The notes: a model not told the origin generated them from the letters alone. A stretch of DNA of 32,000 nucleotides from Candidatus Scalindua sp. (GCA_031316235.1 JALDRA010000001.1:3540001-3572000), one strand, 5' to 3'. Counted from the first letter of the stretch, positions 4,726-31,245 are shown. Translations and numbers: made by a program.

Positions 4726-4743
4726 GTATCTTGTGAGGTTCAT

Positions 4744-5103: not shown

Positions 5104-5380
5104 AGAAAAAAATATTGGCTCTACTCTTGAAAGTTTTCTTAAAGAAGAAGGGAACTATGATGAGACTCAGGCCACAGCGATCAAACGCGTTATTTCATGG
5201 CAACTTCAAGAAACTATGAAAAAACAACATATCAGCAAATCAGAAATGGCGCGGAGGATGAAAACGAGCCGTGCTCACCTTGACCGTTTACTTGATCCTG
5301 GAAATGACAAGGTACAGCTCGACACGCTCTATAAGGCGGCTTCTGCTGTTGGTAAACAACTCCATTTTGAACTTGTATAG
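5096..5380 (+). CDS. XRE-family HTH antitoxin (HigA-like partner)
   Basis: 94 aa with HTH-like segment ISKSEMARRMKTSRAHLDRLL. The start codon overlaps the toxin stop (ATGGTTAA), which is typical type II TA architecture. Confidence 0.75.
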   Translation: MVKEKNIGSTLESFLKEEGNYDETQATAIKRVISWQLQETMKKQHISKSEMARRMKTSRAHLDRLLDPGNDKVQLDTLYKAASAVGKQLHFELV

Positions 5381-15027: not shown

Positions 15028-15153
15028 TAATAATTGTGAGCTTAGGGTTCACGAAAAAATACCAGGTTGTTTATTCCTGAACTCGTTGCTGTTGTTTTGT
15101 GTCAATTGTGTCTCTGTGTGCGGCTCTTTTGACCTTCAGGAAACCTGTAACAG

Positions 15154-15292
15154 CATACTCATCGTATAATGGTTTTCGGATAAAATCCGGGAAAAAATGG
15201 AGCGAGTAAAGTCCTCGGCGATTTTTGTCCGGGGATACCTTCACCAATATCTGGTTTCCAGAAAAACCGAAAACCAAATCGGTTTTAGTATA
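15154..15292 (-). repeat. Structured intergenic repeat (MITE-like), copy A, long variant
   Basis: 139 nt. Its reverse complement aligns along its length with copy C (18495-18637) and shares termini and both hairpins with copies D, E and F. It lies in the 339-nt gap between the MFP and RND genes. Confidence 0.85.
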
Positions 15293-15366
15293 CATAAGTA
15301 CATCCCGGGTAAAGGATGAGGACACCTTGAATCTGGACAGTTCCGGTCCCGCCACAGGGTGTGTGT

Positions 15367-16557
15367 TCAGTCATTAATTAGTTCTCCCGGGAGCAGTTTC
15401 TGGGAAGAAAAGATAATGATCTTGTCTCCTTCTTCAAGACCTTCAAAGAGAAATATCTCTTTTGCCAGATAGTTTTCCTGATTGACAGGGATGAATTTTA
15501 CTCGATTGTTTGACAGGGTAAATACTCCAAGGTTGTTATCGTTAAATCTCAACCAGTCAGCTCTTATTGGATATGCTTCGATACTGTTTGTGGCCAGGCG
15601 GATTGTCGCAGTCATTCCCGGGTATATGTCTCTCTTCTCATTCGAAACAATAAGTTCAATATTGAATAGATGCGTTTTGGGATCTGCTACCGGGGAGATA
15701 AACCTTACTTTACCTGAAATATTCTTTCTGATTGCGGGAATCGTAACTTCAACCTCATGGCCAATAAAAAGATAGGAGAGCTCCTGTTCGGAGACGGCAA
15801 AGGTGATTTTCAGCGGGTCCAGGACCACAATTTCAAGGAGCTTTTGACCGATTCCAACGAACTCTCCTTCTTCGGCATACTTACTGGAAACGACACCTTC
15901 GACTACCGATACAATTCTTGTTTTCCGGAAATTATTTTCCGCGATATCAAGATTTTTTTTGGCAATCAGGACTTCGTTTTCAGCCGATTCGATCTCTTCG
16001 TCCCGGGAGCCATCATTTGCAATTTCCAGATCTTTTTTTGCTATTTCCAGAGTCGTCAAAGCAACCTGATATTTCGTATCAGCATCATCACGTTCTTCTT
16101 CAGAAACGTGTCCTTCCGAAAAAAGCTTTGAAATCCGCTTATAAGCATTCTCTTCATGTTTTTTGTTTTCTTCAAATTTTTCTACCTGCAGACGGAAGAC
16201 TTTTATCTCATCGTCACGGTAAGGATTTTCAACGAGTTTTTTATTCACGACTGCTTTGTTATAACGGGTATGTGCTGCCTCGACCTGCAGAAAGGAGGAA
16301 TGACGGTCAACGTCTGCAAGAATCATCTCTTTTGTAACCTGATCACCTTTGTCGACATTTAAGTGTTCGAGAAGGCCGCTGATTTCTGATGAAACTTTGA
16401 TACTCTTCCAGGGAATAACAGTACCCGTCTTTTCAATCGTTTTTGTGAGGTGCTGTTTTTCCACAGCTATAGTCTTGATCTTACGGTCTTTTGCTGCATC
16501 TGCTGCTGTGAATTGACAGGAAAGAAATAATACGAGAAAGATGATTGTTCTCTTCAT
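15367..16557 (-). CDS. RND efflux periplasmic adaptor (membrane-fusion protein, HlyD family)
   Basis: 396 aa with a signal-like N-terminus, a long charged coiled-coil centre (EEERDDADTKYQVALTTLEIAKKDLEIA...) and a beta-rich C-terminus. It is upstream of the RND permease on the same strand. Confidence 0.88.
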   Translation of the reverse strand: MKRTIIFLVLFLSCQFTAADAAKDRKIKTIAVEKQHLTKTIEKTGTVIPWKSIKVSSEISGLLEHLNVDKGDQVTKEMILADVDRHSSFLQVEAAHTRYNKAVVNKKLVENPYRDDEIKVFRLQVEKFEENKKHEENAYKRISKLFSEGHVSEEERDDADTKYQVALTTLEIAKKDLEIANDGSRDEEIESAENEVLIAKKNLDIAENNFRKTRIVSVVEGVVSSKYAEEGEFVGIGQKLLEIVVLDPLKITFAVSEQELSYLFIGHEVEVTIPAIRKNISGKVRFISPVADPKTHLFNIELIVSNEKRDIYPGMTATIRLATNSIEAYPIRADWLRFNDNNLGVFTLSNNRVKFIPVNQENYLAKEIFLFEGLEEGDKIIIFSSQKLLPGELIND

Positions 16558-16633
16558 ATGATTTTCTTAGATTACAGATCTACACAACCTGGTCAGTGAG
16601 TAAAGAGTATTAAAAAAATCCTGCAGAGTCTTA

Positions 16634-16808
16634 TATACTGAAACCGATCTGGTTTTAGATTTTTCTAAAAACCAAGGCCTGGTTGCTGGTAGCCCAGGAC
16701 AAAATCCGCATCTGAGTATTCCTGAGGTTCTGGTTTTGTTCAATCGAAAAACCGAAATTTCATGCAGACTCATGTCCTGAGATTCAAAAATTATTTTACC
16801 ATGAGTAC
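16634..16808 (+). repeat. Structured intergenic repeat, copy B (shortened module A at 16634-16720 plus module B at 16721-16808)
   Basis: It starts TATACTGAAACCGATCTGGTTTTAGATTTTTCTAAAAACC, like copy C. The second part aligns at about 75-80% by eye with 28215-28299. Confidence 0.75.
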
Positions 16809-17025
16809 AGGAAACGGCATCCTCAAGTATTTTTTTTGAACCGGCTGAAAATATACCGGAGAACCAAGGGCCAAGGAAAGAATAACTTTGTGTTTTTTCC
16901 TGCACCCTGAGGAATAAGAGACGTGGGAGAGTCTATCACATACAGCAAAGGAGTGCAAGAGTCATATTGTTTCGGTCTCAATGGTTTGCAGCTCTTGTTT
17001 ACTGCAAAATCATTGATTTTTCAAT

Positions 17026-17058
17026 CGGCATATTCCGCATAGTGTGTGGAATATGCCG
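17026..17058. other. Perfect 11-bp inverted repeat upstream of the MFS gene
   Basis: CGGCATATTCC (17026-17036), an 11-nt loop, then GGAATATGCCG (17048-17058). It lies about 100 nt upstream of ATG 17160, and no T-run follows. Confidence 0.4.
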
Positions 17059-17159
17059 GCACCCGGTCCCGAGTGTTTCAATCAGGCAAAAGGCATGAAT
17101 AGAGAGGTAAATTGTTCTTGATATTTTCATGGCTATTGAAGGCTGCGGGTTATAAAATC

Positions 17160-18476
17160 ATGCAGATGAAAGAGGAAAAAGAGAGGAATATTTCTGCATG
17201 GTGCATCTATGATTGGGCGAACTCAGCCTTTGCGACGACCGTAATTGCAGGTATTTTACCCCTGTACTTTGCTACCGTAATTGTTCCATCAGGTGGATGG
17301 GAATTGAAATTATATGGTGTGAGTATGGTTACCAATGCTGCGACGATGTGGGCTTTCCTGTCAGGATTAACAGCACTTTTTGTCTTTATAACAATGCCTG
17401 CCCTGGGCGCTGTTGCTGATTATTGCGGAACAAAAAAAAAGTTCTTAATGGTGTTTTGTTACGGGGGAAGTCTGTTTACGGGGCTCATGTATTTTTGTGG
17501 TAGCGGTGATGTATGGATGACGATGATATTATTTTTCCTTGCTAATGCCGCTTTTACGAGTGCAAACATCTTTTACGATGCATTTCTCCCGGAGATTGTC
17601 TCTGGAAATGAAATTGACCGAGTTTCCGGGAAGGGGTATGCTTATGGGTATCTTGGCGGTGGCCTTCAATTCCTCATCTGTCTCGCTTTGATTTTTGCAC
17701 ACGAAAAGATAGGCATGAGTAAGGAGTCGGCGGTACGCATAAGTCTGCTGTTTTCGGGAATCTGGTGGGCAGGCTTTGCGACAATTACCTTTCTTGGATT
17801 GCGTGAAAGTAAGGTAAACCGATCACCTGGTAAAGATCAGCATACGTTCATGCTGTGGTATCATATTCATCAGGGGATTTCGCAGACGTTGAGCACCGTC
17901 TGCAGTATCAAACGATATAAGGACCAGGTTTTGTTTCTTATTGCCTTTATGTTTTACAATGACGGTATCTACACGGTTATCAGGATGGCCACAATCTTTG
18001 GTAAGGATGAACTTGACCTGAGAGATGAAATCCTGCTCGGTACACTTTTGCTGGTGCAGTTTATTGGAATCGGGGGGGCAGTGCTGTTCAGTCGCGTTGC
18101 AGGGGCATTCGGTGCGAAGAAGGTGCTGATTTTTGTACTGTTTCTCTGGTCAGGTATACTTTGCTACGCGTACTTTATCAATAGTCCGGTCGATTTTTTA
18201 CTTCTGGGAACAGCGGTAGGCCTCGTCCTTGGAGGGTCTCAATCTTTAAGCAGATCGCTGTACGCCGCTATGGTTCCCAGAGAGTCTGCCGCAGAGTTTT
18301 TTGGTTTTTATTCGGTATCTGAGAAGTTTTCTGCAATATGGGGGCCCTTTGTATTCGGAATTATCCGTCAGGTGACAGGGTCTTCCCGGCTTTCAATCCT
18401 GTCTCTCGTTGGTTTTTTTATTACGGGAATTGTGATGTTATGGTTAGTTGAGGAAAGGCGAGACAGCACAGCGTGA
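17160..18476 (+). CDS. MFS transporter, UMF1 (Atg22-like) family
   Basis: Track ORF 17112..18476. I prefer ATG 17160 (MQMKEEKERNISAWCIYDWANSAFATT), whose WC.YDWANSAF segment is the usual N-terminus of this family. There are about 12 hydrophobic segments. Confidence 0.88.
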   Translation: MQMKEEKERNISAWCIYDWANSAFATTVIAGILPLYFATVIVPSGGWELKLYGVSMVTNAATMWAFLSGLTALFVFITMPALGAVADYCGTKKKFLMVFCYGGSLFTGLMYFCGSGDVWMTMILFFLANAAFTSANIFYDAFLPEIVSGNEIDRVSGKGYAYGYLGGGLQFLICLALIFAHEKIGMSKESAVRISLLFSGIWWAGFATITFLGLRESKVNRSPGKDQHTFMLWYHIHQGISQTLSTVCSIKRYKDQVLFLIAFMFYNDGIYTVIRMATIFGKDELDLRDEILLGTLLLVQFIGIGGAVLFSRVAGAFGAKKVLIFVLFLWSGILCYAYFINSPVDFLLLGTAVGLVLGGSQSLSRSLYAAMVPRESAAEFFGFYSVSEKFSAIWGPFVFGIIRQVTGSSRLSILSLVGFFITGIVMLWLVEERRDSTA

Positions 18477-18494
18477 AACAAAACTCTTTGAAGG

Positions 18495-18637
18495 TATGCG
18501 AAAACCGATCTGGTTTTAGATTTTTCTAAAAACCAAAGCGTGGTTAATGGTATCCCCGGACAAAACCAGGCGCCGAGGACTTTACCCGCTCCGCTTTATC
18601 CCGGATTTTATCCGAAAACCATCAGGAGATGAGTACA
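18495..18637 (+). repeat. Structured intergenic repeat, copy C, long variant
   Basis: 143 nt. It begins 19 nt after the MFS stop and ends 1 nt before the stop of the convergent 18639..19520 gene. It contains the GGTTTTAGA/TCTAAAAACC hairpin and the CGGATTTTATCCG hairpin. Confidence 0.85.
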
Positions 18638-18638
18638 T

Positions 18639-19520
18639 TCAGGTTAGTTTCAGATATTCTTTAATATTTGATTTCTTGTTTATAACAGGTTTGATCTTCC
18701 CTTTTGCTGAGGTTAAGACCGTCATAACGCCTGGACCGTGACCTGCAATGACGCAATCTGAATGTACGATAATACCAATTGAGACAGCACCTGTTTTGTA
18801 GATTCTTCCATAGGAGTGGTCAGCATCGGTTATGGCCACAAAGTCTCCAAAACGAAGTGTACCTAGCCCGTATTTCTTGACAATCTGTTCATCAAACATC
18901 TGTATGTCATAGTCTCCGGAGTAGCTGTGACTTGAGCCAAGTCCTGATCCCATTATTGCGGCGGGTACAAGATGGGTTACCGGAAAGTCGAGGACTCCTT
19001 TCGTCTCTTTCAGCGGAATTTTCAAAAGGAGGTCTGGTGAGATGTTCATGACGAGGATCTCCGGAAAATAATCTGTGAGGGCCAGACCTGTTCCGTAAGC
19101 CTTTATCTGCATCTTATCTCCCACTGCCATTTTTTCAAGTGTTTCTGAAGGGAAGTCTATCAAAACGTGTTCAATACCTCCGTGTTTTCCAAATACTATG
19201 CCTTCTGCACCTTTCGCGTCACCGGATATGACCTTTGCCTTATTTCCTGCGCAGGCTAATGTATTGAGACCGGCATTTGGGGACCAGCTACCGATGGATT
19301 TTTCAGTATTTGTAATACTGACCCCTGGTTCAACATGATCGGCAGCCCATCCGACAGCTGCGTCACCAACACGTATATTATAGGTTATACCGCCAACGCT
19401 TGGGAGGACAAGAGGCCTGCCATCGGCACTGATAACATAAGGATTCCTTGAAAAAGTGGGACTCGATATCTGCCCAACTACTGATTGGATTACTAGTTTG
19501 TTTTTATTTGTCTTGATCAC
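18639..19520 (-). CDS. Conserved hypothetical protein, DUF4438-like
   Basis: A 293-aa uninterrupted ORF with globular composition. The DUF4438 assignment is from recollection only (no search), so the function is unknown. Confidence 0.75.
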   Translation of the reverse strand: MIKTNKNKLVIQSVVGQISSPTFSRNPYVISADGRPLVLPSVGGITYNIRVGDAAVGWAADHVEPGVSITNTEKSIGSWSPNAGLNTLACAGNKAKVISGDAKGAEGIVFGKHGGIEHVLIDFPSETLEKMAVGDKMQIKAYGTGLALTDYFPEILVMNISPDLLLKIPLKETKGVLDFPVTHLVPAAIMGSGLGSSHSYSGDYDIQMFDEQIVKKYGLGTLRFGDFVAITDADHSYGRIYKTGAVSIGIIVHSDCVIAGHGPGVMTVLTSAKGKIKPVINKKSNIKEYLKLT

Positions 19521-19596
19521 TTTCCCATTTCCCCCCCACGTGATAATGATATAAATAACATCCAGCCCTGCTGAGCCAGAACCAATCAGGGGTTAA

Positions 19597-19709
19597 TATA
19601 CTAAAACCGATCTGGTTTTCGGTTTTACCGGAAACCAGATCCTGGTTGCTGGTATACTTGCTCAAATTTATCTCGGATTTTATCCGAAATCCAGTATGAG
19701 ATGAGTATA
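19597..19709 (+). repeat. Structured intergenic repeat, copy D, standard 113-nt form
   Basis: It runs from TATACTAAAACC to GAGATGAGTATA. Hairpin 1 is GATCTGGTTTTCGG (19609-19622) paired with CCGGAAACCAGATC (19628-19641). Hairpin 2 is TCGGATTTTATCCGA (19673-19687). It is about 88% identical by eye to the reverse complement of 28300-28411. Confidence 0.88.
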
Positions 19710-19881
19710 TTTTTCTCATTGGTCAGCAATTTACCATATTTGTTGACTTTGTGCCAAGTGAATTCCATCAATATACTCTTGATTAATATTGTCTGTTTAG
19801 GTATATTCTCTAACCTCTCCTTGTAACTGATAGTTACGCATTATTTTACTCTAATGTATGAATAGTTCTATCCTCTACTAA

Positions 19882-21294
19882 ATGGAAACCTATAAAGACA
19901 AACTGGCTCCATGGGAACTAAGAAACAGTTATTATCAGAAAATACAGCTCGGCCAGAATATCGGGTCGGTCAAGGGTATGCTGAAAGATCAAACTTTTGA
20001 AATGATAAAGTCTCGGGTTGCTGCAGCAAATGCCATGATTGCAGACCCGAAAATTGATGAAAGTTCAATTCTTGCATTTGGATATGATTTAAAGAGTTTT
20101 GGAAATGGAATGAACGGACTAAAGGCTGCGTTTGAGTGGGGTATTTCAGATGTAGTCTGGCAGATAGAGTTAAACAGCGGATTTTTAAATGAGTTCACGG
20201 ACGATTTTTATAAAACTTTCAAACCTCAGGTGCGAACTCTATACACTGATGCGAAAGCCGCTTACGGAGATGGCAGTGTAGGGGAGGCTCTGGAGAAGTT
20301 TTTGGAGTTGGATGCTGAGATCTGTTTCGATTTTACCGCTCACATAACAATAGGTATCATCTATTTATTTCATGAGATAAATAAAAAAAAGGCTGCTGAA
20401 TATTTTTATAAGGCCCTGAACTATGTGAGATCGGCTTCCCCTTATTACACAGGGTATGCACTCTTATATACTGCGTTGATAAAACGAGATTATGGTTGCA
20501 TTGAAGAAGCTGAAAGCTGTACGAGGAAAGCCATGGAAATCTGCTCAAATTATACCGAGGCGATGTATCAGAATGCACAGTATAACGCACTCCTCAACAA
20601 GCCGGACATTGCAATTCCGCTCCTGAAAAAGGTGATTAACAGTGATATTGTCTATTATCTGAAAATCAACAGCGAGCAGGATTTTGAAGGGATAAGAACA
20701 GACATTAATAAACTATTTGAGGAGATGAGGGATGGGCACAATAAAGAAGTTGCCAGTGGGTTAAAAGAGTTGAAAAAAAAGGTAGTATCATTTCATGAAA
20801 GTGTGGGCAGGATTGAAAAGTTAGGCTATGATTTACCCGGGACATTTTCTCTTGAATTTCTCCGTGGTCATACCAGTGAAGTGGAGATACTGATAAGCAG
20901 GAATACCATTTTTGACGCATCCACCGCAAAACAGTTTCTTCTGCAGACAGATAAGAGTCTGCAGAAGAAAAAACTTGCACTGAAGGAGAAATGCAACAAG
21001 CTGATAAATGATCTTGAAAACAAAGCAGACAATATGGGGAGTCAATTGGTTGAAGAGAATAAAAGAAGTCCGTTTTTCCGGTTTTTCCTTTATTTCTTTT
21101 CCGGTCAATTCGTTGCTGTTCCAGTTGGTATTTCGTTCGGTATCCCGGTTGGTATATATGCAGCAGAATCTGTTCTCTTTGTTTTGTGTTTTTTTCTGAA
21201 TTTCAGGCGTTCACAAAACGCGTGGAAAGAGGTCATGGCTCTTGAGGAAAAAAAAGAGAATCTGCTTGTGATCATGAGAAAAATCAAGATCTGA
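19882..21294 (+). CDS. Hypothetical TPR-like protein with coiled-coil and C-terminal membrane anchor
   Basis: 470-aa ORF. A TPR-like stretch runs AEYFYKALNYVRSASPYYTGYALLYTALIKRDYGCIEEAESCTRKAMEICSNYTEAMYQNAQYN. The hydrophobic C-terminal segments are FFRFFLYFFSGQFVAVPVGISFGIPVGIYAAESVLFVLCFFL. Confidence 0.7.
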   Translation: METYKDKLAPWELRNSYYQKIQLGQNIGSVKGMLKDQTFEMIKSRVAAANAMIADPKIDESSILAFGYDLKSFGNGMNGLKAAFEWGISDVVWQIELNSGFLNEFTDDFYKTFKPQVRTLYTDAKAAYGDGSVGEALEKFLELDAEICFDFTAHITIGIIYLFHEINKKKAAEYFYKALNYVRSASPYYTGYALLYTALIKRDYGCIEEAESCTRKAMEICSNYTEAMYQNAQYNALLNKPDIAIPLLKKVINSDIVYYLKINSEQDFEGIRTDINKLFEEMRDGHNKEVASGLKELKKKVVSFHESVGRIEKLGYDLPGTFSLEFLRGHTSEVEILISRNTIFDASTAKQFLLQTDKSLQKKKLALKEKCNKLINDLENKADNMGSQLVEENKRSPFFRFFLYFFSGQFVAVPVGISFGIPVGIYAAESVLFVLCFFLNFRRSQNAWKEVMALEEKKENLLVIMRKIKI

Positions 21295-21342
21295 AGTTGC
21301 TCTTTGCAGGCTGGTCTTGAACAGCTCACTGCCCACAGTGCC

Positions 21343-21885
21343 CTATTTCGTGATAGTATCAGATTCCTTTGGCTTTATCCACATTTCGTAAATAGGCAGA
21401 GTGATAAGACAGACGAAACAGGAACCGAGGATATAATATGACGCTATGAGAGAGTGTGAAAATGCATCGGATTTGAACCGTATTAACCAGGGGCCGGATA
21501 AATTTAACAGATTCCCGGTAAAAGCGAGGCTGTATATCGAGATCTTAATCCACTCCCGTGTTAGGGTCATTGAAAAAATACGGGACATAACGAAGGTGAC
21601 AAGGGGGATAGCAAATGCATGAACATGGGTTATTTCAAGGATTTCTCTGTATGTCTTGGGAAAAAGAAAACCCTCCTGTAAAAGCACATCGTTCTGTTCG
21701 TATTCTGACTCCTCGTCATAGACTCCCTCATTGCCGCTATAGTGGTGAAACGTCTTTCTCTGACTAAAGCTTGTTCTTTCGTAAAAGTTCGCACAGGATA
21801 TAAAGAAGGCACATCCCATCATTACGAGAAAAAATGTTATGAACAACTTGTTACTTACAGGTGATTTTGAAAGTCCTCTTGCCAT
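21343..21885 (-). CDS. Hypothetical integral membrane protein
   Basis: 180-aa ORF with about 4 hydrophobic segments and an acidic loop (YDEESEYEQND). I do not recognise a family. Confidence 0.6.
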   Translation of the reverse strand: MARGLSKSPVSNKLFITFFLVMMGCAFFISCANFYERTSFSQRKTFHHYSGNEGVYDEESEYEQNDVLLQEGFLFPKTYREILEITHVHAFAIPLVTFVMSRIFSMTLTREWIKISIYSLAFTGNLLNLSGPWLIRFKSDAFSHSLIASYYILGSCFVCLITLPIYEMWIKPKESDTITK

Positions 21886-21995
21886 ATTTCAGTGAGAGTG
21901 AATAGTAAAACATAAAGAAAAATAGTGCCATCGAGATTATAAACAAATGTATCTTTAAAACAAAGAACAAAAAGTTTTTGTACTCATCTCATTCA

Positions 21996-23615
21996 TTACT
22001 GTTTTTTCTTTAAGATACTTGTGTAGAGGTATTTCAATTCTTCTGACCGTAAGAGTAACGAGACGGCAAGGTATGTAACAACAGCCACAGCCAGAGGTGC
22101 AAAAAGTCTGAGGGATTTAGTCTGTATGCTGCCGTCTCCCGCCGGGAGTTTTGAGAGCACAATCCAACATACAAGAGACATGATGAGGGTCGAAATGGCA
22201 GTTTTCAGTAGTGAGATAAGAATATGTTTCGTGCCTGTGATGTTGAATTTTCTCTGAAAAACAGTGAAGAGGATGATTGTCTGGATTATTGCGCTTATGG
22301 CAGTTGCCAATGCAAGACCTCCTTCCTGAAGAAACCAGATGAGAGTTGTGTTAAGGATAAGGTTGAGCAATACCATGCCGGCGCCAACCTTAACAGGTGT
22401 CTTTGTGTCCTGTATGGAATAAAAGGCTCTTACAATCACGTGTAAAACAGAGTATGCCCATATACCCAGGGCGTAAAATGCGATCACCGTAGCTGTTCGA
22501 TATGTGGATTCAGCCGTAAACGCATTTCTCTCATAAAAGAGTGATACCAAAGGTTTTCGCAGTAGTATTAATCCTATTGATGCCGGAATTCCGATAAAGA
22601 GTATGCCCCTTATTGCCTGGTTGTATGTAAGGGCTAAATTTTTCCAATCTTTCCGGGCAGCGTGGGTAGAAAAATAGGGAAACACTGCTGTAGCCATTGC
22701 TATCCCGAACACCCCCAGCGGGAACTGTATTAACCGGTCACCATAATAGAGGACTGATACGGCTCCTGTTTCCAGGGGATAAGGGATGGATAAGCTGCCG
22801 ATAAGAAAGTTTTCGGTTCCACCGGGGGGTTTTGAAAAGGTCATGGCAATAACACTATCCAATAATACGTTAATCTGAACAGCAGCCAGTCCGAAAATAA
22901 TTGGCAGCATGAGTGCTACAACACGCCTGAAACCCGGATGCGAGAAGTAGAGAGAAGGCCTGAAGCCTACTCCCAGTTTTTTCAATATGGGTAATTGGAT
23001 TCCCAATTGAATGAAACCTCCGAAGAGGATGGCAACGGCGACACCAAAAATCTTTTTTTCTAATGTCTCTCCAAACAGGGGTGTGAACATGAATACCCCG
23101 ATAATCCAACAGATATTTAGCGCAATAGGTGCAATTGCAGGCATGAGAAAATGCTTAAGTGAATTTAAGACAGCCATAGCAAATGCCACCATGCATATGA
23201 ATAAAACATAAGGGAACGTTATCATGAGCAGGTTCAAGACTAATTCCCACTTATGATTGAGTGAAGTTATGTGGGGTACTGTCACAAATGAAATTTCTGA
23301 AAAAACAATAATGATGGAAAGAACAATAAGAAGAGCTGTCCCGGTTACGTTTACAAGTTCCATGGCGCTTTTTTTCTCTTTTGTTTCAAGATATTCAGTA
23401 AATACAGGGATAAAGGCAGCACTTAAGGCGCCTTCACCAAAGAGACGGCGGAAAAGATTTGGTATCTTGAAGGCAATTACAAAGGCGTCCCAGGCAATAC
23501 CGGTACCAAAAAAACTTGCACAGATGATGTCCCTGACCAGGCCGAGAATTCTGCTCAACAGGGTGCAGAGACTGATGGTCTTGGCAGAACGCAAAAAATG
23601 TTTTTTCTCACTCAT
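21996..23615 (-). CDS. murJ: Lipid II flippase MurJ (MviN)
   Basis: 539 aa. The N-terminus SLCTLLSRILGLVRDIICASFFGTGIAWDAFVIAFKIPNLFRRLFGEGALSAAFIPVF is the canonical MurJ signature, and the protein is polytopic. Confidence 0.92.
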   Translation of the reverse strand: MSEKKHFLRSAKTISLCTLLSRILGLVRDIICASFFGTGIAWDAFVIAFKIPNLFRRLFGEGALSAAFIPVFTEYLETKEKKSAMELVNVTGTALLIVLSIIIVFSEISFVTVPHITSLNHKWELVLNLLMITFPYVLFICMVAFAMAVLNSLKHFLMPAIAPIALNICWIIGVFMFTPLFGETLEKKIFGVAVAILFGGFIQLGIQLPILKKLGVGFRPSLYFSHPGFRRVVALMLPIIFGLAAVQINVLLDSVIAMTFSKPPGGTENFLIGSLSIPYPLETGAVSVLYYGDRLIQFPLGVFGIAMATAVFPYFSTHAARKDWKNLALTYNQAIRGILFIGIPASIGLILLRKPLVSLFYERNAFTAESTYRTATVIAFYALGIWAYSVLHVIVRAFYSIQDTKTPVKVGAGMVLLNLILNTTLIWFLQEGGLALATAISAIIQTIILFTVFQRKFNITGTKHILISLLKTAISTLIMSLVCWIVLSKLPAGDGSIQTKSLRLFAPLAVAVVTYLAVSLLLRSEELKYLYTSILKKKQ

Positions 23616-23700
23616 GATAAGACAGAGATGGTAAAGGTGGTTTTGTTTCTCCCCTGCCGTCCCGGGGAGGAAGGAGAAAGGGCGATCCCACAGATATACA

Positions 23701-24342: not shown

Positions 24343-24655
24343 GGTGGTTTGTGGTTAAAAAGCCGGACATTTTTGTTCCGTGACCGTGAGACATTTTACT
24401 AGAGTTCATTGTCAACATCAAAAGGATTCTGCTGAAAAAGGTAAATTTCGGGGCTGAAATGTCGATTCCGGCGGAAAAGTTGAAACAGAGTTGCGAGGAG
24501 GGTTTCATGACGACATGTACGGGTGTATATGAATAGAAAACGAAGACAACGGAAACACAATTACATATCAGTTCAGTCAAGTGATAAGAAGTTTGCATTT
24601 TATCATTATCTATCTGCTTGACATGGGTGCAATGAACACGCCTTTTTGATTTGTG

Positions 24656-24683
24656 TTGACACATATAGGTGTCTTGTTATAAT
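24656..24683 (+). promoter_or_regulatory. sigma70-type promoter of purF-purM
   Basis: TTGACA (24656-24661), 16-nt spacer, TATAAT (24678-24683), about 30 nt upstream of the purF start. The -35 box overlaps a small palindrome GACAC-N6-GTGTC (24658-24673). Confidence 0.55.
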
Positions 24684-24714
24684 TTTCAGCTGACAGAATT
24701 GGGTAAAAAAGGAT

Positions 24715-26139
24715 TTGGTTTTGAAAAAAGCAAAAGAATATTGTGGTTTATTTGGGATTTTTGACTGTAAGAATGCGGTAGAAAAGGTCTATTACGGGCT
24801 CTATTCTTTACAGCACCGTGGTGAAGAGAGTGCGGGGATAGCTTCTTCGGATAGCAGGGGAATTGTCCACCATAAAGGACTTGGTTTGGTGAACGATGTA
24901 TTTACCCCTCAGATTCTGAAAGATTTGGACAGGCCCAATGCCATAGGGCATGTTCGATATTCTACTTTTGGTACAAGTGATTATGATAATGCGCAACCCC
25001 TGGTTGTGACCTATTCAAAAGGAGAGGTGGCAATTGCACACAACGGTCAATTGCTTGATGCAGGTAAGCTTCGTGAAGATTATGAGCAGCATGGATCAAT
25101 CTTTCACACTACTTCGGATACGGAAGTTATCGTGCATCTCATGGCGAAACCAAGCCATGTGAAAAAAAAGAATCTCTCCCATGTCCTCAACCACCTGAAA
25201 GGTGCTTTTTCACTCCTGTTTTTGACTAAAGATGAGATGGTTGGTGTGAGGGATCCTTATGGTTTTCGCCCGCTTTCATTGGGAAAAATTGATGGCAGCC
25301 ATGTAATTGCGTCTGAGACCTGTGCACTGGATCAAATAGGTGCGGAGTTCATTAGAGATATAGAACCCGGTGAGGTTGTTTATATCAATAAATATGGATT
25401 GAAAAGCGAGATATATTGTTCTCCCAGGAAGATTCGTCCTTCATACTGTATCTTTGAAATGATCTATTTTTCCCGCCCTGATAGTGTAATATTCGGGGAG
25501 AGCGTTCATATGTTTCGTAAGAAACTCGGGATGCGTCTGGCTGAAGAATTTCCTGTTGATGCTGATATCGTAATATCTGTTCCTGAGGGTGGAAACTCTG
25601 CGGCGTTAGGTTACTCTCACTCTTCCGGTATACCTTTTGAGCGGGGATTTATCAGGAATCACTATGTGGGAAGAACGTTTATTCAACCTGACCAGGGAAA
25701 AAGAGATAAAAAGGTAGAGTTGAAACTGAACGCAATCACGGATGTTGTAAAGGGCAAAAAAGTAGTGGTTGTCGATGACTCTATTGTCCGGGGAACTACC
25801 TCAAGATCAAGATTCAGTCTTTTGCGCAAGGCCGGCGCAAAGGAAATACATGTCAGGATCAGCTGTTCTCCGCTTCGTTTCCCCTGTCATTATGGCATTG
25901 ATTTTCAGATCAAGGATGAATTGATTGCTGCCAATCACTCTATCGAAGAGATAAGAAAATTTCTGGAGGTTGACAGCCTGGCTTATTTGGGTATTGAGGC
26001 AATGCTCGGTTGTACTTCATTGAAAGAGAGTCATTACTGCAATGCCTGCTTTTCTGGAGATTATCCTGTGCCTGTCGGTGATAAGGAGAAGAAAAACAAC
26101 AAAACAGCATCAAAACAGAAAAAGAAGGGTAAGAAATAG
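24715..26139 (+). CDS. purF: Amidophosphoribosyltransferase
   Basis: 474 aa. It has a propeptide followed by catalytic CGLFGIF, then HRGEESAGIA, the PRPP loop VVVVDDSIVRGTTS, and Fe-S cysteines (CHYGID, CNACFSGDYP). It has a TTG start in the track, and an alternative TTG lies at 24721. Confidence 0.93.
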   Translation: MVLKKAKEYCGLFGIFDCKNAVEKVYYGLYSLQHRGEESAGIASSDSRGIVHHKGLGLVNDVFTPQILKDLDRPNAIGHVRYSTFGTSDYDNAQPLVVTYSKGEVAIAHNGQLLDAGKLREDYEQHGSIFHTTSDTEVIVHLMAKPSHVKKKNLSHVLNHLKGAFSLLFLTKDEMVGVRDPYGFRPLSLGKIDGSHVIASETCALDQIGAEFIRDIEPGEVVYINKYGLKSEIYCSPRKIRPSYCIFEMIYFSRPDSVIFGESVHMFRKKLGMRLAEEFPVDADIVISVPEGGNSAALGYSHSSGIPFERGFIRNHYVGRTFIQPDQGKRDKKVELKLNAITDVVKGKKVVVVDDSIVRGTTSRSRFSLLRKAGAKEIHVRISCSPLRFPCHYGIDFQIKDELIAANHSIEEIRKFLEVDSLAYLGIEAMLGCTSLKESHYCNACFSGDYPVPVGDKEKKNNKTASKQKKKGKK

Positions 26140-26141
26140 GG

Positions 26142-27203
26142 ATGGTAGAGTCAACGTATAAAGATGCAGGGGTTGATATCGAAACAAAGAGTAGATTTAC
26201 CCGGGATATCTATGGACAGATGCGCAGGACCTTTGGCCCGAGAGTAATTGAAAATCCAGGGGGATTTGCAGGGCTGTTTTCATTAAACTACCGGTCTGAG
26301 CAATTTTCGAGAAGCTACAAGGAACCGGTTTTAATTGCTTCTACAGACGGTGTTGGTACAAAGTTGAAGATTGCCTTCATGATGGGCAGGCACAATACGA
26401 TAGGTATAGATTTAGTGGCAATGTGTGTGAATGACCTGCTGGTTCTTGGCGGCGAACCTCTTTTTTTTCTGGATTATTTGGCCAGCAGCAGTCTGGTTCC
26501 GGAAAAGTTGAAGGAAGTTGTTGAGGGAATTGCGGAAGGTTGCTGCGAATCCGGCTGCTCCCTTATCGGTGGGGAAACACCTGAGTTGCCGGGCTTTTAT
26601 CATAAGGGTGAATATGATCTTGCAGGTTTTGCTGTAGGTGTAGTTGAAAAAGACAGGATAATACGAGGTGATAAAATTTCACCTGGAGATGTGGTGATTG
26701 GACTGAGGTCAAGCGGACTTCATAGTAACGGCTTCTCTCTGGTACGAAAGGTTCTATTTGAAAAAGCCAAATTGAACATTCACAGCAAAGTTGACCAGAT
26801 AAACGGCAACGTTGGTGATGAGCTTCTTATTCCTACAAGAATCTATGTTCAACCAATTATGAGTCTGTTACGCCAATATAAGATGAAGCAGGTAGTGAAG
26901 GGAATGGCTCATATTACCGGAGGCGGCTTGCTGGAAAATATTCCGAGGATTTTACCCTCCGGTTGTTCAGTTCGGATTAACAAAGGTGCCTGGCCTGTTC
27001 ACAGGATATTTCATGTGATACAGGAGAAGGGAGAGGTTACTGAAGAGGAAATGTACCGTGTTTTTAATATGGGGGTTGGGTATATTCTTGTCGTTTCAAA
27101 GTTTTTTGTGTCTTCTGTTTTAAAAAAACTGGAGAAGATGAAAGAGGAAGCCTTTGTCATTGGAAAGGTTGTCAAGGGAGACAGGAGAGTAGAGATAGGT
27201 TAA
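26142..27203 (+). CDS. purM: Phosphoribosylformylglycinamidine cyclo-ligase (AIR synthetase)
   Basis: 353 aa with the motifs YKDAGVDI, DGVGTK, DLVAMCVNDLLV and GGETPELPG. It starts 2 nt after the purF stop. Confidence 0.93.
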   Translation: MVESTYKDAGVDIETKSRFTRDIYGQMRRTFGPRVIENPGGFAGLFSLNYRSEQFSRSYKEPVLIASTDGVGTKLKIAFMMGRHNTIGIDLVAMCVNDLLVLGGEPLFFLDYLASSSLVPEKLKEVVEGIAEGCCESGCSLIGGETPELPGFYHKGEYDLAGFAVGVVEKDRIIRGDKISPGDVVIGLRSSGLHSNGFSLVRKVLFEKAKLNIHSKVDQINGNVGDELLIPTRIYVQPIMSLLRQYKMKQVVKGMAHITGGGLLENIPRILPSGCSVRINKGAWPVHRIFHVIQEKGEVTEEEMYRVFNMGVGYILVVSKFFVSSVLKKLEKMKEEAFVIGKVVKGDRRVEIG

Positions 27204-27208
27204 ATTTT

Positions 27209-27964
27209 TCAGGAGGCCTGGATAATTCTATTCCTGAAGATACCATGATTGCCTATGATGATATAGACACAAAAACCTAACGGGAGCATGATACTGGGAT
27301 ACATTATAAACAGCACAAGGAGGGTGAGGAATATTCCTGTTATGGTAAATAAAGCAGCAGGGCCGTGTTTCTTCTTCACAACATCAATAACTTTAATGTA
27401 TTGAATCTTGCTTAACATTAATATGCCTAAGACGAAGGTGGCGCTGGGAAGGCATGTTGCAACAGTTTGAATATTCAGATTTACCTTAAGATAGGAATCT
27501 AACAAGATCAAGGATGCAACGGTACCTCCAGCCAGGGTTGATGGTAAGCCTGTAAAATATTTGCTTCTGACGTTTTCAGTCGTGATTTCTGCTTCGAACT
27601 TTGACAGTCTGATCACGGCACACAATGTGTAAAAGAAGCAAACAAACCATATAGCCACATGTGTGTCGAAAGCATCTATGCTGCCAAGGAGGAACGCAGG
27701 CACCAACCCAAACGTGATCATATCTGCAAATGAATCGAAATGCCCTCCCCAGGCTACATTTGATTTGAGTAGCCGTGCGAGCTGCCCATCAAGACCGTCA
27801 AATACCATTGCTGCAATGACAAGCCAGGCTGCGGAAGAGACCTCTTTATGCATGAGTAAGACAATTGCTCCAAAACCACACGCTAAATTACCGGCAGTTA
27901 CAACGGAAGGCAGATAGTTTTTTAATTTCATTTTTAACATAAATTTAACCGAAAATTTTCTCAC
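27209..27964 (-). CDS. pssA: CDP-diacylglycerol--serine O-phosphatidyltransferase (CDP-alcohol phosphatidyltransferase family)
   Basis: The motif DGLDGQLARL...GGHFDSFADMITFG matches D-x2-DG-x2-AR-x8-G-x3-D-x3-D. It is a polytopic membrane protein of 251 aa, and internal ATG starts are possible. Confidence 0.85.
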   Translation of the reverse strand: MRKFSVKFMLKMKLKNYLPSVVTAGNLACGFGAIVLLMHKEVSSAAWLVIAAMVFDGLDGQLARLLKSNVAWGGHFDSFADMITFGLVPAFLLGSIDAFDTHVAIWFVCFFYTLCAVIRLSKFEAEITTENVRSKYFTGLPSTLAGGTVASLILLDSYLKVNLNIQTVATCLPSATFVLGILMLSKIQYIKVIDVVKKKHGPAALFTITGIFLTLLVLFIMYPSIMLPLGFCVYIIIGNHGIFRNRIIQAS

Positions 27965-28199
27965 AAAGGTTGTTTTAGATAGATCGTTTTAATATGAGCT
28001 AAATTCATGCCAAAAATGATATTCAGCAGGAGCAAATATCCTGAATTATTGTAAGTACCTTTTCTTTATCTGGTTAGTGACAGAATAAGATCCTGAATTT
28101 ACTTTACTGGAATCTTTTCCATGCAGTTGATGCAGGAAAAATACTGCACAAAATCAGGGTGTGTACTGCACATACGGATTGAGCCCCTGCTGGGAGAAT

Positions 28200-28411
28200 G
28201 GGTACTCTCTCATTTTGGTATTACTGAGCTTCTGATTTTGTGCAATCGAAAAATCAGGATTTTACGCAGATTCATGCCCTGAAATTTCAAAAGCCGTTTT
28301 ATACTCACTGCATAGTGGTTTTCGGATAAAATCCGAGATAAAATTGAGCGAGTATACCTTCACCAAGATCTGGTTTCCGGTAAAACCGAAAACCAGATCA
28401 GTTTTAGTATA
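28200..28411 (-). repeat. Structured intergenic repeat, copy E (module B at 28215-28299 plus inverted module A at 28300-28411)
   Basis: 28300-28411 is the reverse complement of the copy D sequence type, from TATACTCACTG to GTTTTAGTATA. 28215-28299 aligns with 16721-16808 in the same absolute orientation. The copy ends 38 nt before the nth start. Confidence 0.82.
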
Positions 28412-28449
28412 CAATGAACAGAGAGTTCAAAATTTAATTCGACTGAAAA

Positions 28450-29097
28450 ATGGAAAACATAGACGTCATTATACAGATTCTTGAAAAGGAAACTAAGAGT
28501 TATATTGTACCAATTGTTACGAAAATATCAAAGGCGAGAAATCCGTTTAAGGTGCTTATCTCATGTCTACTCAGTTTAAGGACCAAGGATCAGGTAACAG
28601 CAGAAGCTTCAGTGAAATTGTTTCTTCTTGCTGACACTCCCGAGAAAATGCAGAAGCTGAGTGCTGCACATATTGAAAAGGCTATTTATCCCGTTGGATT
28701 TTATAAGACAAAAGCGAAACGGATAAAGGAAATATGTCGTACATTGACAGAAATTTACGGGGGGAATACACCGGATGAAATTGATGAGCTTTTAAAATTA
28801 AAGGGGGTAGGCCGTAAAACTGCGAATTTAGTAGTTACATTAGGATATGGGAAACTTGGAATATGTGTCGATACTCATGTCCACAGGATCTCAAACAGAT
28901 TAGGTTTTATAAAGACGAAGACCCCTGAGCAGACAGAATTTGCTTTAAGAAAGATATTACCAGAAAAATACTGGATAATCTACAATGATCTTTTAGTATC
29001 TTATGGTCAAAATGTATGCAGGCCTATTTCACCAAAGTGCAGTAATTGCAAATTATTCAAGTATTGCAGGAGAGTGGGAGTTGAGAAGTTTCGGTGA
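28450..29097 (+). CDS. nth: Endonuclease III (HhH-GPD DNA glycosylase with a 4Fe-4S cluster)
   Basis: The motifs are LISCLLSLRTKD, the HhH segment LKLKGVGRKTANLVV, VDTHVHRISNRLG, and the C-terminal cluster C-x6-C-x2-C-x5-C (CRPISPKCSNCKLFKYC). Confidence 0.9.
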   Translation: MENIDVIIQILEKETKSYIVPIVTKISKARNPFKVLISCLLSLRTKDQVTAEASVKLFLLADTPEKMQKLSAAHIEKAIYPVGFYKTKAKRIKEICRTLTEIYGGNTPDEIDELLKLKGVGRKTANLVVTLGYGKLGICVDTHVHRISNRLGFIKTKTPEQTEFALRKILPEKYWIIYNDLLVSYGQNVCRPISPKCSNCKLFKYCRRVGVEKFR

Positions 29098-30064
29098 TAT
29101 GCCTGTCTTCCGCTGCTAAGCGATTACCAACAGCAGCTTGCACCCTTTCACCGGTAAGTTTTTCGCAAGCTTCCAAGTATTTGTTTGATGTGATATCAAT
29201 GATTTCATCAGGAAGCGAAGGGGGAGGGGAGTTTTTGTCCCAACCGCTGGTATCCAAATAGTCTCTCACGAATTGTTTGTCAAAAGATGGCTGCGACCTG
29301 CCGGGCTCGTAATCCTCCAGCGGCCAGAAACGGGATGAATCAGGTGTTAATATCTCATCGATCAATATTAATCTGTTGTTATACATGCCCCATTCAAATT
29401 TTGTATCGCTGATAATTATACCTTTTGTTCGCGCGTAAGCACTTGCTTTTTTATACATCTCTATACTTTTCTGTTTTAATTCCTTAGCAAGCCTTTTCCC
29501 TGTAATTTCAACGGTCTCTGCATAAGAAATGTTCTCATCATGACCGGAAGCTGACTTTCTTGCAGGGGTGAAGACAGGTTCCGGCAATTGTTCACACTCC
29601 TGGAGTTTTGGTGGTAATTTTATTTTGCACACGGTGCCATTTTCCTGGTATTCTTTCCACCCTGATCCCGCTAAATAACCTCGCACCACACATTCAACAG
29701 GGATAACGTTAACTTTTTTTACGAGCATGGACCTGTCCCGTAACATCTCCCTGTCTTCATCCTTTAAGAGGTGAATAGTATCAATTTCCGTTGTAATCAG
29801 ATGGTTTTCAGTCAGCTCACTCATGAACTGAAACCAGAATTCTGATAGATGTGTAAGCACTTTACCTTTACAGGGTATACCGTTTGGTATGACTGAGTCA
29901 AAGGCGGAGATCCTGTCGGTCGCTATAAGGAGCAAATTATCACCTATTTCATAGATATCTCTAACCTTTCCATGGTTATGAAGCGTTAGATAGTTGATGT
30001 TGGTTTTCAGTACTATACCGCTTTTGTCTGTTTTCATGGGTCTAAAATGATAAAACTCCTGCAT
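29057..30064 (-). CDS. purC: Phosphoribosylaminoimidazole-succinocarboxamide (SAICAR) synthase, long form
   Basis: The motifs are HNHGKVRDIYEIGDNLLLIATDRISAFD, VKKVNVIPVECVVRGYLAGSGW, IIISDTKFEWG and LIDEILTPDSSRFW. The alternative start is ATG 30037. The roughly 25-aa C-terminal tail overlaps nth. Confidence 0.9.
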   Translation of the reverse strand: MQEFYHFRPMKTDKSGIVLKTNINYLTLHNHGKVRDIYEIGDNLLLIATDRISAFDSVIPNGIPCKGKVLTHLSEFWFQFMSELTENHLITTEIDTIHLLKDEDREMLRDRSMLVKKVNVIPVECVVRGYLAGSGWKEYQENGTVCKIKLPPKLQECEQLPEPVFTPARKSASGHDENISYAETVEITGKRLAKELKQKSIEMYKKASAYARTKGIIISDTKFEWGMYNNRLILIDEILTPDSSRFWPLEDYEPGRSQPSFDKQFVRDYLDTSGWDKNSPPPSLPDEIIDITSNKYLEACEKLTGERVQAAVGNRLAAEDRHITETSQLPLSCNT

Positions 30065-30233
30065 CTGCTGCGTAGTGTTTACCAGCTACAATATACTGTT
30101 GTCCTTTTTTGCGATTCAGTGATGGATGCATAAAAACAGCACCATTTATGAGTTGATATTTCCCTGACAGATTTTTGCGTACCTATCCATCTGCTATGGG
30201 GTAAATGCCGGGTGATGTGCCTGATTACAGGTT

Positions 30234-31175
30234 TTAACTGGAGGCCTCTGCATACTGAAAAGGGGCAAACTTATGTAAAATGTTTTTTTGTAAAAAATGG
30301 TCGTGTAACTTTTTACGCAGTTTTTGTGTGCCCTTCAGGTTAGGACAGAGTGACAGGGCCTTATTAAAATTTACCATTGATCCGTTCCAGTCACCAAGGG
30401 TTAAATAACAATCTGCAATTTTTTTATATATCAGAGCCTCCTCGTTTTTATTGAGTCCAAGGGCAAAAACCTTCTTAAAATAGGTAATTGCTGCGCTGGG
30501 TTGTATTGTTTTGAACAGTTTCTTGCATGACAATCGAATTATACGCTCCTTTATCTCCTGGCGGAGATGTCTGCGGTCAGGGTTTTTCTGGGCATTTGTG
30601 TAAACGTGCTCGTACCATTTGAATGAAAGCTCATAGGCTCCCTGCCTTTCATACTCCTCTGCAAGAAGAAATATGCAATCTACATAATCTTTGATACCTA
30701 ATAAGACCAGAAGATCGCACTCCTTGTTCTCAGCTCTCAAGCGTTCATAACTTTTGATAGCCTGTGATCCATGTTTGTTTAAAAGATCACTTAAGATCTG
30801 TTTTACCTGAAACTTTATGCTGGAAGTATCATTCTTCGGAGCAAATCTGTCATTATCGACTCTTGCAGCCCTGTCTACCTGGAGTAATCTATCATAATGA
30901 TCTCTTTTTTCAGCGTCTGTCAATGTCTTGTAGGCCTGGATCAGTAACTTGATCTGACCATCTGCGGAGACTCCATTGGTCTTATGCCTGTCAGGATGGT
31001 ATTGTTTTACAAGCTTTCGAAAAGAGTTCTTGATTACTTCGTCTTTTGCCCCTTCTTCTATTTGTAAAACATGGTAATAGTTAATCAGCTTTGATACCTC
31101 TTTCTCTATAAAGATTGAAACTTCTCTGCACGAGTCAAGTATATTGCACACATGAAACATGATGTTGAAATTCAT
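30234..31175 (-). CDS. J-domain (DnaJ-like) protein with a TPR-like C-terminal region
   Basis: The segment NYYHVLQIEEGAKDEVIKNSFRKLVKQYHPDRH contains the HPD motif. TPR-like helices follow (AEEYERQGAYELSFKWYEHVY, IADCYLTLGDWNGSMVNFNKALSLCPN). The start is uncertain (31175 or 31160). Confidence 0.82.
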   Translation of the reverse strand: MNFNIMFHVCNILDSCREVSIFIEKEVSKLINYYHVLQIEEGAKDEVIKNSFRKLVKQYHPDRHKTNGVSADGQIKLLIQAYKTLTDAEKRDHYDRLLQVDRAARVDNDRFAPKNDTSSIKFQVKQILSDLLNKHGSQAIKSYERLRAENKECDLLVLLGIKDYVDCIFLLAEEYERQGAYELSFKWYEHVYTNAQKNPDRRHLRQEIKERIIRLSCKKLFKTIQPSAAITYFKKVFALGLNKNEEALIYKKIADCYLTLGDWNGSMVNFNKALSLCPNLKGTQKLRKKLHDHFLQKNILHKFAPFQYAEASS

Positions 31176-31188
31176 GTTTTATGAATGA

Positions 31189-31245
31189 TATACTCATCTC
31201 ATAATGGTTTCCGGTGAAACCGGAAACCAGATCGGTTTTAGTATA
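31189..31245 (-). repeat. Structured intergenic repeat, copy F, 57-nt minimal form
   Basis: TATACTCATCTCATAATGGTTTCCGGTGAAACCGGAAACCAGATCGGTTTTAGTATA. It keeps both termini and a perfect 10-bp hairpin GGTTTCCGGT/ACCGGAAACC, and it lies 14 nt upstream of the J-domain gene start. Confidence 0.8.

Follow-up and report, generated by a model that had tools for sequence, protein, structure and literature searches.

What are the short structured repeats that lie between the genes of a 32,000-nucleotide (nt) stretch of Candidatus Scalindua sp. DNA (GCA_031316235.1 JALDRA010000001.1:3540001-3572000), and what put them there? This whole stretch is called the window below. A preliminary description, made from the sequence alone, had listed six copies, A to F, between positions 15154 and 31245, with A, E, and F on the minus strand and B, C, and D on the plus strand. 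It had offered a non-autonomous transposon, a repetitive extragenic palindromic (REP)-like protein-binding or terminator element, and a small-RNA family as candidate roles. Our analysis indicates that the repeats are probably a non-coding, TA-duplicating, non-autonomous DNA transposon specific to the Scalinduaceae, a family of marine anammox bacteria, that is, a miniature inverted-repeat transposable element (MITE). The family appears to be undescribed, while the element type itself is well known. In the searchable literature, we found no paper that connects Scalindua or anammox bacteria with MITEs or transposable elements.

The high density of the repeats in the window, six copies in 16 kb, would fit a local duplication or chance similarity within this stretch. 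However, the counts argue against it. A 15-mer, AAACCGATCTGGTTT, has six matches in the window with up to two mismatches, against 0.10 expected, and a degenerate 34-nt core, AAACYGATYTGGTTTNNGNTTTNNCNNNAAACCA, matches exactly six times, against 0.00 expected. Searches with nhmmer found the same six copies and no others in the window, at the coordinates and on the strands first reported, and all six align over their whole length. No family copy was found below position 15154, in agreement with the earlier remark that the accessory first 15 kb is free of them. We then scanned one genome per species, 185,579 species genomes in all, for the core pattern, counting non-overlapping 8-kb blocks. The pattern is present in at least 118 such blocks from seven Scalinduaceae metagenome-assembled genomes (MAGs). 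Among the blocks listed, all are from Candidatus Scalindua, Scalinduaceae, or Anammoxibacter MAGs. Two rounds of nhmmer over the blocks and the window (about 0.96 Mb) gave 203 matches, which correspond to 177 non-overlapping elements; the full model is covered by 136 of the matches. One MAG alone has at least 99 elements in its 66 sampled blocks, and further copies, including a divergent sublineage, are present in metagenomes. The search for further genome-wide copies, which the preliminary description had recommended, therefore returned many, in the same and in related genomes. Metagenomes and at least seven species-level genomes together hold hundreds of copies, whose contexts and flanks are mutually unrelated, at a chance expectation of 0. 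We therefore rejected a merely local or chance repeat, to which we assign almost no probability.

The boundaries of the element are sharp. In 135 full-length copies with flanks, the information content reaches 1.7 to 2.0 bits across TATACT...GAGTATA, and in the flanks it does not exceed 0.39 bits. TA stands at the first two and at the final two positions in 96% or more of these copies. The termini TATACT... and ...GAGTATA in the preliminary description are thus borne out by the window sequences, with degenerate termini in copy C. The element proper is TACT...AGTA and has an imperfect terminal inverted repeat of about 24 nt (left, TACTAAAACCGATTTGGTTTTCGG; right, as the reverse complement, TACTCATCTCATAATGGTTTTCGG). 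The two ends agree at 16 of 24 positions, including the TACT tip and a 10-mer, TGGTTTTCGG, at positions 15 to 24 from each end. Hairpin 1 is formed by the left 10-mer and an inverted copy of the same 10-mer. The 113-nt form consists of two palindromic units of about 57 to 60 nt with a common TATA, and the 139-nt form has a GC-rich mini-hairpin (26 to 30 nt) exactly at the unit junction. In larger variants, insertions are confined to the loops of the hairpins and to the junction between the units. The size classes are 57, about 112, about 139, and 165 to 235 nt, all below the limit of about 300 bp for a bacterial MITE, and the sizes cluster at about 112 nt, about 138 to 139 nt, and 165 to 176 nt. 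The 116- to 145-nt class, which bears the GC module, is the commonest, with 72 of the 177 elements. Fifteen elements fall below 70 nt, among them minimal forms comparable to copy F.

Has the element moved, and what happens to its target? Four copies are nested in other dispersed repeats, at loci L004:7587-7695, L075:545-674, L012:4498-4608, and L071:3582-3720 (identical to L032:5565); the remaining members of the host repeat families served as empty sites. Copy C provided one more comparison. In all five, a single TA in the empty site is matched by TA[TACT...AGTA]TA in the filled site, with the exception that the repeat copies used as the empty site for L075 have CA, not TA. The orthologous empty sites for copy C read TGA-ATA-CCTT in L132 and TGA-ATA-GCCTT in L129, and the filled site in the window reads TGAA-TG[TACTCATC...CGCA]TA-CCTT. 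Copy C is an insertion at an orthologous TA, and one of the duplicates mutated later. The preliminary description had placed the termini "often in a TA context." The TA is present, and the comparison of filled with empty sites refines this context to a TA target-site duplication.

The other window copies were also compared with related genomes. The flanking genes in L129 are 87 to 91% identical to those of the window (about 89%), yet L129 is without copies A, B, and C. The site of copy A corresponds to element-free intergenic regions of 132 and 97 nt in L129 and L130, respectively. The site of copy B is empty in L129, and a different copy lies elsewhere in the same L129 intergenic region. There is no element in the regions of L130 and L132 that are orthologous to the copy D site, and the HhH-GPD/CDP-OH-transferase intergenic regions of the same two loci, which correspond to copy E, give no match. 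L130 bears a copy where the window has none. Other syntenic MAG pairs differ in presence or absence as well, for example L029/L097 and L019/L022, whose intergenic DNA is too diverged for base-level junctions. These differences indicate that the family has been mobile since the split of close relatives. Empty sites in relatives had been named as a check on the MITE-like interpretation, and they exist. The interpretation is supported by these sites, by the dispersed copies, and by the Rfam comparison, which gave 0 matches at gathering thresholds in the whole window and 0 matches even at E ≤ 1 in positions 15000 to 20000.

A 2-bp TA duplication is a hallmark of the Tc1/mariner/IS630 superfamily, and ISY100 is reportedly one example of an IS630/Tc1-type TA duplication. 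Going by the TA target site alone, we lean toward an IS630/Tc1-like enzyme as the agent that mobilizes the Scalinduaceae element. Bacterial MITEs are described as smaller than 200 bp, non-coding, and A+T-rich, with terminal inverted repeats, 5'-TA-3' termini, and a target-site duplication (PMC2229807). The Scalinduaceae element agrees with this profile in its size, its non-coding and A+T-rich sequence, its inverted repeats, its TA termini, and its TA duplication. Its copies are also dispersed and polymorphic.

Several observations weigh against a MITE. The inverted repeat of the main family is weak, as the agreement at 16 of 24 positions indicates. The TA duplication is indistinguishable by sequence from an element that owns one TA and inserted beside another. 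About 1.08 Mb of loci and two filtered metagenome scans yielded no autonomous element with matching ends. The consensus sequences of the individual genomes differ by only 1 to 9 of 112 nt, and the syntenic DNA of these genomes, which is mostly coding, is 75 to 88% identical. Finally, compensatory changes keep hairpin 1 paired in three sublineages.

The two possible origins of the flanking TA bear on a different kind of mobility. The repeats could be REP/REPIN- or PATE-like elements that are moved as single-stranded DNA by an HUH (Y1) enzyme, either RAYT or an IS200/IS605-type TnpA, and that are placed 3' of a target ending in TA without true duplication. The subterminal hairpins near both ends would suit such an element. 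So would a second class of repeats in the same genomes, GC-rich palindromes of the form CCYGTCYG...CRGGCRGG (27 to 53 nt). They have 35 matches, none of them in the window; 18 of the 35 lie directly after TTTTA, and 23 of the 35 lie inside the loops of main-MITE hairpins 1 or 2. The main-MITE variants of 146 to 235 nt hold these palindromes in the loop of hairpin 1 or 2, nearly always right after TTTTA, and no target duplication is visible at the insertions. The palindromes also occur after AATTA in other repeat families and standing alone, and some contain further nested hairpins (L103:5877-5914, L016:6604-6633, L084:1693-1719, L019:6328-6360 and 6606-6638, L037:466-505, and others). They look like an independent nested REP-/PATE-like mini-element, and an HUH-type system may therefore be active in these genomes. 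One main-MITE copy, L007:5708-5878, differs from all others in that its hairpin-1 segment runs in the opposite direction (GGTTTCCAGTAAAACCGAAAACC). This flip could also be taken as a sign of HUH activity; it is expected from recombination within a DNA palindrome.

However, each end of the repeats is an imperfect inverted copy of the other, with 16 of 24 positions matching for the main family and 23 of 26 for the sibling family described below, whereas IS200/IS605 elements have no inverted-repeat ends. The flank preference is weak and roughly symmetric; positions -10 to -1 of the left flank carry at most 0.39 bits each, and there is no conserved 4- to 5-nt target on that side. The sequence has no REP-type GTAG head. 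No Y1-transposase domain was found among 20 locus ORFs (open reading frames) scanned, a search that was not exhaustive. Because the repeats have inverted-repeat ends, gain a TA, and lack a conserved one-sided target, they do not fit the definitions of REP/RAYT or IS200/IS605 elements. We consider movement by an HUH enzyme very unlikely. The REP-like role in the preliminary description is not supported as the main explanation either, since the repeats lack a GTAG-type REP signature and show a TA duplication.

If the repeats are MITEs, an autonomous relative might supply the transposase. Left and right ends that lie 260 to 3,500 nt apart in the loci have no transposase between them; the intervening genes encode RRF, an amino-acid kinase, FKBP, carbonic anhydrase, G6PD, and other housekeeping proteins. 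None of the multi-copy ORFs in the loci is a transposase. Metagenomes were scanned for the left terminus with an interior other than that of the MITE, with 0 matches. A second scan, for the shared right-end (R-type) terminus with a non-MITE interior, gave 9 matches, all of which are MITEs of the divergent sublineage. Two scans of viral contigs gave 0 matches. An IS630-family copy was sought as a seed protein on the Synechocystis plasmid pSYSG, where none is annotated. A transposase gene with ends starting TATACT, as the preliminary description had envisaged, was thus not found in the loci and scans examined. We rejected as parents the two DDE_Tnp_1 insertion sequence (IS) copies of the window and an IS5-like gene of L130, because their ends are unrelated to the MITE termini. 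The two window IS copies are adjacent (7082-9094 and 9161-11237), and each contains an ORF of 570 to 590 aa. These ORFs match DDE_Tnp_1 weakly, the second copy below the Pfam cut-off, and each IS copy has its own perfect 21- to 22-nt inverted repeat starting CTAGC.

Do the repeats instead serve the genes beside them? By our own greedy ORF calls, 160 of the 177 elements (about 90%) lie outside ORFs, compared with an ORF fraction of 74% (p about 4e-73). Most of the 17 overlaps are ORFs of 91 to 138 aa that run through the element and look spurious. Between co-directional genes, 42 elements are in the sense and 40 in the antisense orientation (p = 0.91); of the elements in other gaps, 33 are in divergent and 18 in convergent ones. 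The even split between sense and antisense speaks against the idea that the family exists to act as a strand-specific RNA, a terminator, or a riboswitch-like element. A promoter and terminator scan of the copies gave totals equal to the shuffled expectation. The only recurrent promoter match was the TATACT end read as an inward-pointing -10 box (two copies), and one terminator-like match is on the antisense side of copy F. The terminator role proposed earlier is disfavored by these orientations and by the lack of a conserved T-run.

The predicted folds are very stable, as expected for a palindromic element. Copy D folds as RNA at -46.5 kcal/mol (z = -7.0), and copy F at -20.7 kcal/mol (z = -4.7), equally on both strands. 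In a 106-copy alignment, 93.6% of the cells in the four helices are paired. Covariation hardly exceeds the controls: 4 helix pairs show double changes, and slid controls give similar numbers or more. The reasons are that the copies are too alike (about 90 to 95% pairwise identity) for a stronger test and that the variant hairpin is misaligned by MAFFT. The variability is nearly uniform from column to column. The G.U pairs of hairpin 1 occur only on the strand in the TATACT orientation (in 83 and 76 of the 106 copies), and, in qualitative terms, this hairpin stays paired through double changes in the three sublineages. The main form has C-G pairs. The B/C type, GGTTTTAGA/TCTAAAAACC, has A-T pairs (TTTTAGA..TCTAAAA) in 11 copies from several genomes, and the divergent metagenome lineage, GGTTTTTGG/CAAAAAACC, has T-A pairs.

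These features could mean that the repeat is a functional structured RNA or DNA module, such as an mRNA-stabilizing or processing hairpin or a protein-binding site, that is kept by host selection and for which mobility is only a means of spread. Conservation would then lie in the hairpins and not in the inverted repeats. The stable folds, the G.U pairs limited to one strand, the compensated pairs, the confinement of variant insertions to loops or the unit junction, and the near-identical consensus across species would all be in keeping with such a module. Yet we regard it as unlikely. The even orientations, the absence of a conserved promoter or terminator, the lack of an Rfam match at E ≤ 1, the near-control covariation, and the uniform column variability argue against it. 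Copies also turn over fast between close relatives, unlike conserved regulatory sites. The even orientations, the lack of a conserved promoter or terminator, and the weak covariation statistics likewise speak against the small-RNA family of the preliminary description as the main explanation.

Copy identity between genomes (0.90 to 0.93) equals the identity within genomes. For a MITE, the rapid copy turnover favors recent bursts, with source elements that are well conserved or spread laterally. Selection or gene conversion may lie behind the cross-species consensus, and that conservation together with the hairpin-1 compensation could reflect selection beyond transposition. Selected hairpins would explain both features. 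In a broader version of this idea, the repeat would be a structure-constrained mobile unit, with its hairpins selected as RNA or as single-stranded or cruciform DNA, and would also be a preferred landing pad for the GC-rich mini-palindromes, making a nested two-tier system with a host-level role. We consider this scenario improbable. Two nested copies in the same host repeat of two species, L012:4498-4608 and L076:6827-6938, are about 98% identical and look orthologous; the neighboring genes are 81 to 84% identical.

How might a TA-duplicating MITE have produced the forms in the window? The element inserts at TA dinucleotides and has TA on both sides afterwards. In the mechanism we propose, a DDE transposase acting in trans would mobilize it by cutting at TA with a 2-bp stagger, and the Tc1/mariner/IS630 superfamily is the prime candidate source. 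The tip nucleotides would be needed for cleavage, and the inner 10-mer TGGTTTTCGG would be the putative binding site. A parent element of this type would carry TA-TACTCATC(N4)AWTGGTTTTCGG ends in inverted orientation. The 57-nt form F may have arisen by recombination or deletion between the repeated inner motif, and the forms of about 139 nt (A and C) from a GC-rich module at the unit junction. Copies B and E may have come from recombination with, or nesting in, a sibling MITE of the same terminus. Because the element is palindromic, read-through transcripts would carry very stable hairpins, and effects on neighboring genes are possible. Such effects would be by-products and not the reason for the existence of the family.

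Copy D (19597 to 19709, plus strand; nhmmer E = 1.8e-29) is the canonical 113-nt form, with TA on both sides. Its left inverted repeat is at 19597-19622 and its right inverted repeat at 19684-19709. The two hairpins described earlier are both present in its sequence: hairpin 1 has 14 bp, with 19609-19622 paired to 19628-19641, and hairpin 2, TCGGAT-TTT-ATCCGA, is at 19673-19687. The unit junction TATA is at 19653-19656. Copy E proper (28300 to 28411, minus strand; E = 1.8e-28) is a 112-nt form, also with TA on both sides, and is 96% complementary to copy D over 50 nt. Copy A (15154 to 15292, minus strand) is a 139-nt form with a full-length nhmmer match (E = 2.5e-42) and flanking dinucleotides TA and TG, one copy of the duplication being degenerate. 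By alignment, its 27-nt GC-rich mini-hairpin module, TCCCCGGACAAAAATCGCCGAGGACTT, is at 15209 to 15235 on the minus strand, exactly at the junction of the two units and bounded by TA and TA. Copy C (18495 to 18637, plus strand; E = 4.1e-36) is a 143-nt form with the variant hairpin 1 GGTTTTAGA/TCTAAAAACC and the degenerate termini TATGCG...GAGTACA. The extra GC-rich insert first described in A and C is present in both, at about 27 to 30 nt. Copy F (31189 to 31245, minus strand) is, as first reported, a 57-nt minimal form, in which only a loop separates the left from the right inverted repeat; its stem has 11 bp.

ORF and Pfam context places all six copies in gene gaps, as the preliminary description had stated. 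Copies B, D, and E are in divergent gaps. Copy A lies within one operon, with an HlyD-like gene on one side and an AcrB-like gene on the other, and copy F is 13 nt upstream of the predicted start of a DnaJ/TPR gene. Copy C fills the convergent gap between an MFS gene and a DUF4438 gene. The DUF4438 protein, encoded between copies C and D, has its best matches in Scalindua MAGs at 91 to 95% identity, which places the window in a Scalindua-like anammox planctomycete.

Copies B and E had been called composite forms. The extra sequence in them is real, and it belongs to a separate sibling MITE family of about 205 nt, M2, which has seven further copies in other loci. Copy B (16634 to 16808, plus strand) is a hybrid of the two families. 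Its left part, 16634-16715, comes from the main family (nhmmer, model positions 1-82) and comprises the left end, hairpin 1 in a variant form, and one half of the GC module. Its right part, 16699-16812, is M2 and ends in CATGAGTACA (M2 profile match, E = 3.6e-32). Copy E is better described as the 112-nt copy beside an M2 fragment at 28196 to 28299 on the plus strand (M2 profile match, E = 2.1e-29; family alignment), into which it appears to be inserted. M2 has the main family's R-type terminus at each end, TATACTCATCGCAAATTGGTTTTCGG...GCGATGAGTATA, and its two ends match at 23 of 26 positions; the same terminus marks the fragment beside copy E. Profile matches to M2 are at 16699-16812 and about 28196-28300 in the window and at L106:506-612, L085:5417-5527, L021:2910-3018, L050:1641-1748, and L031:4316-4423 elsewhere. 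A sibling family that shares a terminus explains the composite copies, and the terminus common to both families points to recognition by a common transposase.

Other small repeats accompany the two MITE families. A dispersed repeat of about 160 nt, TAGTGTTTGAACGAAAACTACCCATCTACGGCGTTGCTGCAACAAT...GGTTCAAACACT, has its own inverted ends and hosts nested main-MITE copies (L115:6613-6761, L085:5598-5732, L065:7407-7559, L055, L104, L057, and many others). A further repeat family, ...CCAGAACCAAACAGGGGTTAA|TAAAATTACAAATCTCAATTTACAAA..., is present at L076:5836-6076, L073:4564-4673, L037:~450-560, and window 19560-19596. In L071, in L032, and at window copy D, the main MITE lies at the same TA after GGGGTTAA. 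This recurrence suggests a hot spot or side-by-side TA-targeting elements.

Several known bacterial repeats resemble the Scalinduaceae element, which in our reading is a transposon of the Correia/RUP kind. RUP, a MITE of Streptococcus pneumoniae that is thought to be mobilized by IS630-Spn1, is likewise about 107 to 113 nt long, non-coding, and intergenic, with about 100 or more copies, inverted-repeat ends, and insertion at TA, and both elements insert into other mobile elements (PMC2229807 for RUP; the nesting described above for the Scalinduaceae element). However, the two are not known to be related in sequence, and RUP has a candidate parent IS with matching ends, whereas the scans described above found none for the Scalinduaceae element. 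The modular two-unit build and the GC-rich modules in the loops also set the Scalinduaceae element apart from RUP.

The Correia element (CREE/NEMIS) of Neisseria likewise has several size classes, of 100 to 155 nt, and transcripts that fold into long hairpins, and it too is not known to have a cognate transposase. It differs in its IHF site and in the promoter and RNase III effects that are documented for it. Its termini begin TATAGCGGATTA... and differ from the Scalinduaceae termini. The likeness to Correia, as to RUP and ERIC, is one of kind only. Correia and the Scalinduaceae element differ in phylum and apparently in sequence, and the Scalinduaceae inverted repeat is the more degenerate (16 of 24). 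REPs are 20 to 40 nt long and have a conserved tetranucleotide head, no target duplication, and an associated RAYT gene. REP, BIME, and REPIN sequences share with the Scalinduaceae element a short, intergenic, palindromic character, many copies, mosaics, and conservation within a lineage. Unlike REPs, the Scalinduaceae element has inverted-repeat ends, a TA duplication, and units of 57 to 140 nt, and there is no RAYT in the sequence examined. In ERIC (IRU) of enterobacteria, larger variants arise by insertion at fixed internal sites, as they do here. The ERIC sequence is not known to be related, and ERIC is reported mostly in transcribed regions, whereas the Scalinduaceae element has no orientation bias. 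Further points in common are that Correia has a TA duplication and an inverted repeat of about 24 to 26 bp starting TATA, and that ERIC is an imperfect palindrome of about 127 nt with TA termini (PMC2229807).

The window has other features outside the repeat family. A clustered regularly interspaced short palindromic repeats (CRISPR) array at 1-4600 has at least 63 copies of a 32-nt repeat, GTCGCTCCCCGTGCGGGAGCGTGGATTGAAAC. The repeats are mostly spaced about 65 to 67 nt apart, and about 70 to 79 nt apart in roughly 830-2230, which gives two spacer-length classes in one array. A similar array is present in L052 (Scalindua RBC_AMX3). A Gp49/HigB-like toxin ORF at 4714-5103 overlaps a small downstream ORF at 5096-5380; the two probably form a toxin-antitoxin pair within the accessory region. 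At 5650-6084 there is a DUF3768 ORF. A 470-aa ORF at 19882-21294 has no Pfam match. It is syntenic in Scalindua sp. AMX11 and a CBDCUS MAG and is absent from the closest relative, L129.

Anammox Scalindua are an uncultured group of ecological importance, and their mobile elements have been described only poorly. Because the element type is well known, the finding is useful more than surprising. A defined, abundant MITE aids annotation and assembly, as its copies can create spurious ORFs of 91 to 138 aa and break assemblies. Since copies differ at flanking DNA that is about 89% identical, their insertion polymorphisms are strain-level markers. The stable hairpins that the family places beside many genes are also of interest, with copy F at 13 nt from a predicted start codon and copy A inside an efflux operon.

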